Virus record (IMG/VR): IMGVR_UViG_3300050034_000334
DNA length: 64,000 bases
Reading direction: 5' to 3' (one strand)
Source: a virus
Taxonomy: Duplodnaviria; Caudoviricetes
The notes beneath the pieces are model-generated. The model did no database searches. It saw only the letters and a list, made by a program, of their open reading frames with translations, and was not told the origin of the DNA. Both the position numbers and the translations under genes were made by a program. The first letter of the stretch is position 1; each line of letters opens with the position of its first letter. Positions 58,569 through 59,423 of this stretch are shown one piece after another.

Positions 58569-58641
58569 AGCCACCTGTCAGGATTGAACTGACGACCTCG
58601 TCCTTACCAAGGACGCGCTCTACCAACTGAGCTAAGGCGGC
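58569..58641 (-). tRNA. tRNA-Thr(GGT), CCA not encoded
   Basis: CGTCC-TTGGTAA-GGACG; C2:G71, U73, followed by CTT. Confidence 0.93.
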
Positions 58642-58656
58642 ACTACTTCTAAACTC

Positions 58657-58738
58657 TGGAGCCTTGGGAGGGACTCGAACCCCCGTTGTGTTATAGCAGA
58701 TTACAGATCTGCTGCTGTCGCCGCTGAGCCACCAAGGC
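58657..58738 (-). tRNA. Atypical tRNA, Thr(TGT) by position on a Tyr-like body
   Basis: GCAGA-TCTGTAA-TCTGC (C33); 11-nt variable region; C2:G71, U73, CCA. Confidence 0.7.
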
Positions 58739-59311
58739 TAGTCTCGTGACTTGAATCCTTTGTTGCATAGGACTCTTATCAGATGTTAACTTACAGTCTC
58801 CATTTACTGCATTTCTTCCTCTTCCCCAGTTTAGTGCTTTGTACGTTGGAGTGATCGCATGACAACATGGACAGAGCAATAACACGTTATCCGGAGAGTT
58901 ATCCTTCCAATCTCCATTCTCGTGTTCTAGTTCAATAGGTGCAATTCCAGTTACCAGATTGACTTCACACCATCCACAACGCTGACATTTATTTCCAAAC
59001 AAGTGAATGAGAGCTCGCTTAGTCCTTCCGTGAGTTTCTTCCTTTGGAGATAGCGTTCTTTCCAGCCAACGCTTAATCCAAATTGAAAGTTCGTAGCTGC
59101 TCTTACATTTGTTAGAGCAGTAAGTATTAGCAGATTTGATACCAGTTCCACAACCAGGACAAAACTTTACGACCTTTTCTGGTTTCTTCTTCACCAACCC
59201 CAGTTTGGTCAGATGATATCGGACATTGGTTTGACTTGCACCTAGTTGTTCCGCTATCTTCCAACTGCTAAATCCTGCTGTCCACAACCGAGTTAGCTCA
59301 ACTATATCCAT
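58691..59311 (-). CDS. HNH homing endonuclease within tRNA cluster
   Basis: CQRCGW...ELEHENGDW.DNS.DNVLLLCPCCHA; start moved to 59311; tail overlaps the tRNA. Confidence 0.85.
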   Translation of the reverse strand: MDIVELTRLWTAGFSSWKIAEQLGASQTNVRYHLTKLGLVKKKPEKVVKFCPGCGTGIKSANTYCSNKCKSSYELSIWIKRWLERTLSPKEETHGRTKRALIHLFGNKCQRCGWCEVNLVTGIAPIELEHENGDWKDNSPDNVLLLCPCCHAITPTYKALNWGRGRNAVNGDCKLTSDKSPMQQRIQVTRLALVAQRRQQQICNLL

Positions 59312-59346
59312 ACCCAGATTCCTAAAGTCGGAAAACAGGTGAGCTA

Positions 59347-59423
59347 TGGAGCACCCCATCGGATTCGAACCGATGTCCACTGAGTACGAAACAGTGATCC
59401 TAAACCAACTAGACGAGAGGTGC
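59347..59423 (-). tRNA. tRNA-Thr(CGT) with U31:U39 mismatch
   Basis: ACTGT-TTCGTAC-TCAGT; C2:G71, U73, CCA. Confidence 0.8.

Follow-up and report, generated by a model that had tools for sequence, protein, structure and literature searches.

Background

Textbooks reserve long variable regions for the transfer RNAs (tRNAs) of leucine, serine and, in bacteria, tyrosine. A tRNA-Thr that arose from another tRNA is found in yeast mitochondria, where tRNA-Thr1 was derived from tRNA-His via an insertion into the anticodon loop. The present study concerns three tRNA-Thr genes, with the anticodons GGU, UGU and CGU, within a stretch of 64,000 nucleotides (the window, by which the whole stretch is meant) of the IMG/VR virus record IMGVR_UViG_3300050034_000334 (Duplodnaviria; Caudoviricetes). 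We regard it as likely from the sequence that these genes encode three working tRNA-Thr species for a phage that is rich in threonine and in the codons ACA and ACU, and that the UGU species was remoulded from a tRNA-Tyr.

Threonyl-tRNA synthetase (ThrRS) identity is made up of acceptor pairs and the anticodon, N73 being a weak element (PMC9976931). Several bacterial defence systems act on tRNAs of the kinds considered here. The AriB nuclease of PARIS cleaves tRNA-Thr(UGU) of E. coli and, to a weak degree, tRNA-Thr(CGU) between positions 40 and 41; tRNAs of phage T5 rescue infection, and T5 tRNA-Thr(UGU) is needed for full rescue from AriB (PMC12409363). Retron-Eco7 and Septu cleave tRNA-Tyr in its variable loop, and N6-threonylcarbamoyladenosine (t6A) is a positive determinant for PrrC, as cited in PMC12409363. 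The formation of t6A37 by E. coli TsaBCDE is blocked by U33C (PMC8887486).

Three tRNA-Thr genes with common threonine marks

The genes for tRNA-Thr(GGU) (58568..58641), tRNA-Thr(UGU) (58657..58738) and tRNA-Thr(CGU) (59347..59423) all lie on the minus strand and were detected by ARAGORN as well as by the Rfam model RF00005. Their Infernal scores of 66.3, 50.4 and 47.3 bits, respectively, stand against a gathering threshold of 29 bits, so that a chance origin of the three calls is excluded. All three have G1:C72, C2:G71 and U73 in the acceptor and G35 and U36 in the anticodon. The trio with common C2:G71 and U73, which a sequence-only reading of the same DNA had described, is therefore borne out by both programs and by our own reading of the sequence.

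The record of which the window is a part comprises 143.6 kb with a G+C content of 49.9% and a CheckV completeness of 46%. It is a jumbo-phage fragment, distantly related to the Tunturiibacter phage Tunturi_5, the only cultured relative found, whose baseplate protein is 46% identical.

Structure of the tRNA-Thr(UGU) gene

The UGU gene stands out by the shape of its product. The anticodon loop reads UCUGUAA, which places a C at position 33, and the anticodon stem GCAGA/UCUGC is preceded by A26. The D stem consists of only three base pairs (G10-C25, C11-G24 and U12-A23) with C13.C22 unpaired, as in class II tRNAs. The variable loop of 11 nucleotides is rich in A and C, contains no G, cannot form a stem and is unpaired in the minimum free energy fold. 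Because the variable region does not form a stem-loop, we call the tRNA class-II-like and not class II. C33, the short D stem, the 11-nucleotide variable region and the possibility to read GUA after a shift by one base had all been listed in the sequence-only reading, and every one of these details is present.

Class I tRNA-Thr(UGU) species, such as those of Tunturi_5 and of Acidobacteriota (in an operon of the thrU-tyrU-glyT-thrT type), have the same G1:C72, C2:G71 and U73 and also share the UGU anticodon, A37-A38, the 7/5 acceptor/T stem and the T loop with the window gene. The latter differs from them by the D stem of 3 base pairs, a variable loop of 11 instead of 5 nucleotides, C33 instead of U33 and the anticodon stem of a tRNA-Tyr. 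On a class I Thr model it scores 46.6 bits, compared with 71-88 bits for typical class I members.

With such a combination of features the gene might be taken for a decaying or non-decoding tRNA-like RNA, be it a pseudogene, a nuclease decoy, a primer or a regulator. C33, an Infernal score that is the second lowest of the six tRNAs in the operon and an endonuclease open reading frame (ORF) that overlaps the 5' half of the gene would all fit this idea, as would the thermodynamic fold, which narrows the anticodon loop to 5 nucleotides; folding adds little here, however, as unmodified tRNAs over-close the anticodon loop. Against it, no stem is broken, the gene retains U8, A14, G18-G19, the T-loop UUCGAGU and an encoded CCA, and the stems covary across the lineage described below. 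Moreover, the gene is the only one for tRNA-Thr(UGU) in its operon, which is likewise so in all 13 other loci with the same anticodon arm, and its codon ACA, which also occurs in the leader ORF of the operon, makes up 21% of the threonine codons of the phage. We consider a non-decoding RNA very unlikely.

A phage lineage of tRNA-Thr with long variable regions

The oddities of the UGU gene are not adaptations confined to this phage but characterise a large lineage of phage tRNAs. BLAST searches against cultured phages matched tRNA-Thr(UGU) genes in two phages, the Sinorhizobium phage Phosso and the 642-kb LR756502, and also the tRNA-Tyr of T5-like Klebsiella phages, for example Sugarland. The D arm and the T arm of the Phosso and LR756502 genes are identical to those of the window gene, as are those of most of the 55 IMG/VR Thr genes described below, and the A/C-rich variable loops of the Phosso and LR756502 genes are 12 nucleotides long. 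We defined the lineage by the shared 17-nucleotide D arm, the T arm (GGGGG/CCCUC with the loop UUCGAGU), a variable region of at least 11 nucleotides and a threonine acceptor, all of which the window gene possesses. The nearest members resemble it in the body with a similarity of 0.87-0.91.

Within IMG/VR, the 17-nucleotide D arm was found at 76 loci and in 59 tRNAs, 55 of which are threonine tRNAs (47 UGU, 7 CGU and 1 AGU). The variable regions of these 55 genes are 11-20 nucleotides long throughout, and some form true stems of 3-5 base pairs. Two Trp, one Val and one Tyr tRNA carry the same D arm. In the IMG/VR loci L036, L072, L018 and L066, the scaffold is combined with the anticodons of Trp(CCA), Val(UAC) and Tyr(GUA), and the acceptor stem is changed to match each of them; one D-arm scaffold is reused for several identities. 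The same 17-mer gave at least 120 matches in prokaryotes (one genome per species), and three tRNAs, two of them in tRNA arrays, are among the matches listed.

When 64 distinct long-variable-region Thr genes were pooled, G1:C72 was present in all 64 and C2:G71 in 63; at position 73, 45 of them have U and 17 have A. The genes have 42 different acceptor stems, all three stems are more than 99% paired, and the stems covary. The tRNA-Tyr genes from the same loci carry G2:C71 (20/22) and A73 (22/22). The pattern is that of functional tRNAs under selection with the acceptor marks of threonine rather than tyrosine, and the window gene belongs to a widespread, mainly phage-borne tRNA-Thr lineage. In the literature covered, which took in few subscription journals, we found no description of a phage tRNA-Thr with a long variable arm or of class II.

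Variable regions of at least 9 nucleotides were also observed in isotypes that had not been selected for this trait, namely in 9 of 44 Ile, 6 of 29 Asn, 5 of 23 Cys and 6 of 32 Trp genes (distinct genes of the phage tRNA arrays L014-L263).

Relationship to tRNA-Tyr

That the anticodon arm of the UGU gene is Tyr-like can be substantiated in several ways. The tRNA-Tyr of Acidobacteriota has the arm A-GCAGA-CUGUAAA-UCUGC, that is, the stem of the window gene with the loop offset by one base. This arm is the consensus of 20 aligned Tyr genes and occurs once each in 30 of 61 sampled genomes of Acidobacteriota, or in 29 of 60 if the unpublished genome G027 is set aside, and the shifted arm, with either C or U at position 33, was present in none of 301 Acidobacteriota genomes. 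In metagenomes, we detected the exact C33 arm in 12 tRNA-Thr(UGU) genes, which together with the window gene represent 10 distinct sequences, no two of which share a D arm; each is the sole tRNA-Thr(UGU) gene in its locus. Six of the 10 have a long variable region (the window gene, L009=L233, L220=L230, L221=L227, L223 and L225), five of these six with Tyr-like D arms, and the other four are class I. The U33 version of the arm is present in 21 further IMG/VR genes, 13 of the 18 distinct ones having a long variable region. Among genes that had not been fetched by the arm, a GCAG-type stem is carried by 7 of 22 tRNA-Tyr, 6 of 45 tRNA-Thr with a long variable region, none of 44 class I tRNA-Thr and 14 of 595 other tRNAs.

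The resemblance extends to the rest of the body. With the class II tRNA-Tyr of bacteria and that of Sugarland, the window gene has in common the stem GCAGA/UCUGC preceded by A26 and a similar T arm. Its D arm differs from that of Sugarland at 1 of 17 positions, and the Sugarland variable loop, with 10 nucleotides, is likewise unpaired and A/C-rich. The differences from bacterial tRNA-Tyr are the loop, which is shifted by one base to present UGU and not GUA, and C2:G71 and U73 in place of G2:C71 and A73. Phage T5 was considered as a source of a matching Tyr body and rejected: its tRNA-Thr(UGU) is class I and its Tyr arm is stemmed, and the match is with phages of the Sugarland type.

Isotype scoring, which had been proposed as a check, was carried out with covariance models trained on 20 Tyr and 42 class I Thr genes, leaving out the lineage and the closest Tyr look-alikes. 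The window gene reached 43.8 bits on the Tyr model and 46.6 bits on the Thr model, so the scoring came out as a near tie. True tRNA-Tyr genes (L066 and Sugarland) scored 61-65 and 25-27 bits, and L224 and L219, two class I Thr genes that share the arm, 35 and 71-80 bits on the two models, respectively. Two members with the C33 arm were clearly closer to the Tyr model (L009 with 52.2 against 35.0 bits and L225 with 57.0 against 42.0 bits), and for L221 the Tyr model was about 2 bits above the Thr model. The nearest neighbour of all three is a tRNA-Tyr. Among the class II isotypes, the long-variable-region Thr genes have Tyr as nearest neighbour more often than Ser or Leu, both of which are more numerous. 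The window tRNA-Thr(UGU) is thus a hybrid that carries threonine identity elements on a Tyr-like body.

Could the tRNA be a tyrosine tRNA after all, either charged by tyrosyl-tRNA synthetase (TyrRS) or reading UAY via a shifted anticodon? The stem, the D arm and the long variable region are of the Tyr type and the gene reaches 43.8 bits on the Tyr model. However, the gene lacks the combination of GUA, A73 and G1:C72/G2:C71 that marks a tRNA-Tyr: it has U73, where A73 is found in 22/22 Tyr genes, and C2:G71, where G2:C71 is found in 20/22. The loop of 7 nucleotides puts UGU in the middle, with G35 and not the U35 required by TyrRS, and the leader ORF contains no Tyr codon. No register with a paired stem yields GUA. 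Charging by TyrRS is unlikely, because A73 and U35 are missing and the second pair is C2:G71 rather than G2:C71, and we regard a tyrosine tRNA as barely credible.

A different origin would be an expansion of the variable loop of a class I tRNA-Thr, in which case the match to the Tyr arm would be due to chance or convergence and C33 would be a recurrent, tolerated U-to-C change. We hold this to be possible but not probable. It is favoured by a class I tRNA-Thr(UGU) of a Microbacterium phage, which aligns with the lineage at 76% and whose variable loop of 6 nucleotides resembles the ends of the 12-nucleotide loop of the lineage. The same arm exists on class I tRNA-Thr(UGU) genes, C33 also occurs with unrelated stems and in other isotypes, and the members L034 and L012 favour the Thr model (53 versus 35-40 bits). 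On the other hand, a D stem of 3 base pairs together with a long variable arm, which often has a stem of 3-5 base pairs, is a trait of bacterial tRNA-Tyr that is missing from bacterial tRNA-Thr. L009, L221 and L225 are nearest to Tyr, with a lead of the Tyr model of 15-17 bits for L009 and L225. The loop would have required five substitutions, whereas two indels suffice to turn the Tyr loop into that of the window gene. Finally, the shifted arm is absent from all 301 genomes searched in the likely host phylum, whereas about half of the genomes sampled for the Tyr arm possess it.

The descent of the UGU gene from a tRNA-Tyr is the most economical reading of the sequences and most likely the correct one, because bacterial tRNA-Tyr generally has a class II architecture and bacterial tRNA-Thr lacks it. 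The body and the anticodon stem would come from a tRNA-Tyr gene. The loop would have gained one base on its 5' side and lost one on its 3' side (CUGUAAA to UCUGUAA), which would move the anticodon from GUA to UGU and leave the former C32 at position 33. This is reminiscent of the yeast mitochondrial tRNA-Thr1, as in both cases a tRNA of other identity would have become a tRNA-Thr by an indel in the loop and changes in the acceptor. In the present case, however, the loop keeps its 7 nucleotides, the source would be tRNA-Tyr, the codons are standard threonine codons and the carriers are phages.

Codon demand and the proposed role of the trio

The idea that the tRNAs serve a high demand for threonine agrees well with the coding sequences. 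Threonine accounts for 6.8% of the codons in the ORFs of the record and for 10-14.5% in large structural ORFs, including those with 1000 or more amino acids; the ORFs at window positions 14353-18000, 23610-26834 and 60967-62433 are among the large ones. The threonine codon fractions of the record are 0.34 for ACU, 0.29 for ACC, 0.21 for ACA and 0.155 for ACG; those in 41 kb of Acidobacteriota sequence are 0.08, 0.40, 0.06 and 0.47, respectively. ACA and ACU together thus make up 55% of the threonine codons in the record compared with 14% in the Acidobacteriota sample. Codon supply explains the presence of the UGU and GGU species well and that of the CGU species less well. All three threonine isoacceptors are also kept in Tunturi_5, in the IMG/VR relatives L001 and L002 and in two other arrays with the C33 arm.

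In the scenario that we propose, a jumbo phage infects Acidobacteria of peat soil, and its three tRNA-Thr genes together would cover all four ACN codons for a threonine-rich proteome, whose usage of ACA and ACU is far above that of the likely host. The UGU species is most likely charged with threonine, because its acceptor pairs G1:C72 and C2:G71 and its G35 and U36 are marks read by ThrRS, and it would decode ACA and, depending on the modification of U34, also ACG or ACU. Its expression, its charging with threonine, its descent from tRNA-Tyr and any benefit of its odd body are what we infer from the sequence.

Several points weigh against this scenario. The descent from tRNA-Tyr is argued from similarity, and the D-arm scaffold occurs not only under Tyr but also under Trp and Val anticodons. 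The nearest neighbours of the long-variable-region Thr genes are mixed, the C33 arm is also found on the four class I tRNA-Thr(UGU) genes, and the class I tRNA-Thr of the Microbacterium phage resembles the lineage. As the loci were picked via sequence patterns, the frequencies given here are biased, and they ignore kinship. The codon comparison was made with fragments of Acidobacteriota metagenome-assembled genomes and not with the true host. In addition, with C33 the tRNA has no U-turn uridine, which may weaken decoding, and by analogy with the E. coli enzyme a loss of t6A37 via C33 could make it a poor decoder.

C33, t6A and the evasion of tRNA nucleases

A defence that cuts tRNA-Thr, as postulated in the sequence-only reading, does exist: PARIS AriB acts on the UGU and CGU species (PMC12409363). 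One may therefore ask whether the class-II-like body, C33 and the mismatch in the CGU species were selected to evade a host enzyme by which host tRNA-Thr is cleaved or modified. Decoding of ACN codons would then continue once the host pool is destroyed. Such an anti-defence function is compatible with a role in codon supply and addresses the cause of the odd shape. Besides the target set of AriB and the rescue by T5 tRNA-Thr(UGU), it is favoured by the fact that the phage carries a tRNA-Thr(CGU), although ACG is the codon least in need of supply, and by the exchange of the Thr trio as a cassette between phages with 84-94% identical flanks. C33 is found in about 4% of the sampled phage tRNAs, and C38 instead of A38 in the CGU species breaks the U-A-A-U motif. 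In contrast, the UGU arm retains U36-A-A-U39-C40 of the AriB motif and differs only at position 41 (U for A), whereas T5 tRNA-Thr(UGU) is changed at position 39. Long variable regions also occur in isotypes for which no nuclease is known. Neither RtcB nor a CCA-adding enzyme was found in the 143.6 kb, which is uninformative at a CheckV estimate of about 46% of the genome. Evasion of an AriB-like enzyme by the UGU species is thus not evident from its sequence. We consider selection of the odd features for this purpose rather doubtful, but nuclease evasion as such is plausible.

Phage T5 offers a comparison. In both phages, copies of a defence-targeted tRNA with changes in the anticodon arm are encoded in a tRNA region rich in endonucleases. 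However, T5 tRNA-Thr(UGU) is a class I tRNA of 75 nucleotides, and the window gene keeps U39-C40 and differs in the shape of the body and at position 33.

A more specific proposal is that C33 is a selected "modification-stealth" mark, which would keep an ANN-decoding tRNA free of t6A and so invisible to t6A-dependent tRNases, the codon still being read. Among the phage tRNAs sampled, and with kinship ignored, C33 was found in 12 of 186 ANN decoders versus 7 of 294 others (p=0.03), a 2.3-2.8x enrichment due mainly to Thr and Ile, and the exact C33 arm has been kept on all 10 different tRNA-Thr(UGU) bodies. We rate this proposal as quite unlikely. As a trait of the long-variable-region lineage, C33 was rejected, since the D-arm scan gave 3/42 in the lineage versus 16/438 in other phage tRNAs and it is not lineage-specific. 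C33 was also observed in a recurrent phage tRNA-Ile(GAU) (L033, L036, L071, L077 and L083), whose loop CCGAUUA has a pyrimidine at position 37 and whose body is Glu/Gln-like.

The tRNA-Thr(GGU) and tRNA-Thr(CGU) genes

Over positions 8-63, tRNA-Thr(GGU) is 94-95% identical to tRNA-Thr(GGU) of Acidobacteriota, which likewise have U73, and it scores 85.8 bits on the class I Thr covariance model; it is a canonical, host-type gene. It carries G4.U69, as does tRNA-Thr(GGU) of Tunturi_5; in vertebrates, G4.U69 invites mis-alanylation (PMC9976931).

In tRNA-Thr(CGU), the previously noted U31.U39 mismatch is indeed present and leaves an anticodon stem of 4 base pairs. The gene further shows a G.U-rich D stem, a variable loop of 4 nucleotides, C38 and an encoded CCA. 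The class I Thr model gives it 54.3 bits, and thermodynamic folding gives no cloverleaf on energy alone. The mismatch is not special, as 18.5% of bacterial tRNA-Thr(CGU) genes have an anticodon stem of 4 base pairs, with open top and bottom pairs pooled (PMC13092985). Like those tRNAs, the window gene lacks one of the two terminal pairs of its anticodon stem, but this is 31:39, in contrast to 27:43 in the natural case of E. coli (PMC13092985). The CGU and UGU genes of L001/L002 have A31.C39 at this place, and a search for the exact anticodon arm of the window gene gave no match in IMG/VR. The body is nearest to tRNA-Glu (7 of 20 nearest neighbours), as seen in its GUCUAG...UAGGA-type D arm and the 4-nucleotide variable loop, and this Glu-like body suggests a second case of remoulding. 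The tRNA-Thr(GGU) of L001/L002 resembles the Glu-like body of the window CGU species. All in all, tRNA-Thr(CGU) is an ordinary, if weak, phage tRNA, and a full set of threonine tRNAs as well as the 4-base-pair stem of its CGU member are ordinary for a jumbo phage.

Operon layout and cassette exchange

The operon comprises six tRNA genes, all on the minus strand and called in agreement by ARAGORN and RF00005, and the 143.6-kb record contains none further. Their order is Ile, Thr-CGU, Thr-UGU, Thr-GGU, Gln and Cys, so that the Thr genes are flanked by tRNA-Ile on one side and tRNA-Gln and tRNA-Cys on the other. The first gene, tRNA-Ile(GAU), is located at 59438..59513 (61.8 bits), followed at the other end by tRNA-Gln(UUG) at 57311..57384 (57.9 bits) and, as the last gene, tRNA-Cys(GCA) at 57227..57303 (64.7 bits). 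CCA is encoded in five of the six, the exception being tRNA-Thr(GGU).

Homing-endonuclease genes interrupt the operon. An ORF of the HNH type (58691..59311, minus strand, 206 amino acids), with helix-turn-helix and treble-clef/HNH-like motifs, lies between the CGU and UGU genes; its 3' end overlaps tRNA-Thr(UGU) by 48 nucleotides (58691-58738), the stop codon being located in the variable loop. A GIY-YIG-type ORF with a NUMOD3 motif (57607..58524, minus strand) is situated between tRNA-Thr(GGU) and tRNA-Gln. A further ORF with a GIY-YIG-like N-terminus (60921-60238), which has the baseplate gene on one side and the tRNA leader on the other, gave no match in a Pfam comparison. The tRNA region of T5 is interleaved with endonucleases in the same manner, and T5 hegC and hegD likewise end inside the next tRNA gene.

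Upstream of the operon there is a leader mini-ORF of 24 codons, P0001 (59583..59657, minus strand), and between it and tRNA-Ile a terminator-like hairpin with a U run (59536..59557, minus strand; 7 pairs, 6 of them G-C). Both are kept in the relative L002. The leader ORF contains 6 Thr codons (all four ACN codons are used), 3 Gln, 2 Ile, 1 Cys and 0 Tyr, and apart from Met, Lys, Leu and Ser its first 16 codons specify only amino acids of the six tRNAs. Its composition mirrors the tRNAs of the operon.

L001 and L002, whose baseplate protein is 93% identical, agree with the window in the anticodons and their order, but the Thr sequences are unrelated. The segment 59435-58570 of the window (Thr-CGU, HNH, Thr-UGU and Thr-GGU) has no detectable similarity to L002:12233-13210, although the flanks are 84-94% identical and the Gln and Cys tRNAs together 84% identical to L002. 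The endonuclease genes are placed differently in L002, where the GIY-YIG homologue is found downstream of tRNA-Cys. From these comparisons, the Thr trio seems to have been exchanged as a block, as expected under gene conversion driven by homing endonucleases.

Conclusions

New in the present study are a tRNA-Thr on a Tyr-type, class-II-like body with C33, the shift of the Tyr arm and the link between C33 and t6A. With a large tRNA-Thr lineage built on such a body, phages show that the shape and the identity of a tRNA can uncouple in nature, and the apparent origin from tRNA-Tyr by a shift of the loop by one base offers a concrete route to new isoacceptors in tRNA arrays. Annotation programs with isotype models will mark these genes as conflicting between Tyr and Thr or as pseudogenes, though they are probably functional. 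For work on tRNA-targeting defence systems such as PARIS, retron-Eco7/Septu and PrrC, these tRNAs provide material for asking if tRNA-Thr gains protection against cleavage from a class-II-like body or from C33, and if C33 prevents the formation of t6A37.

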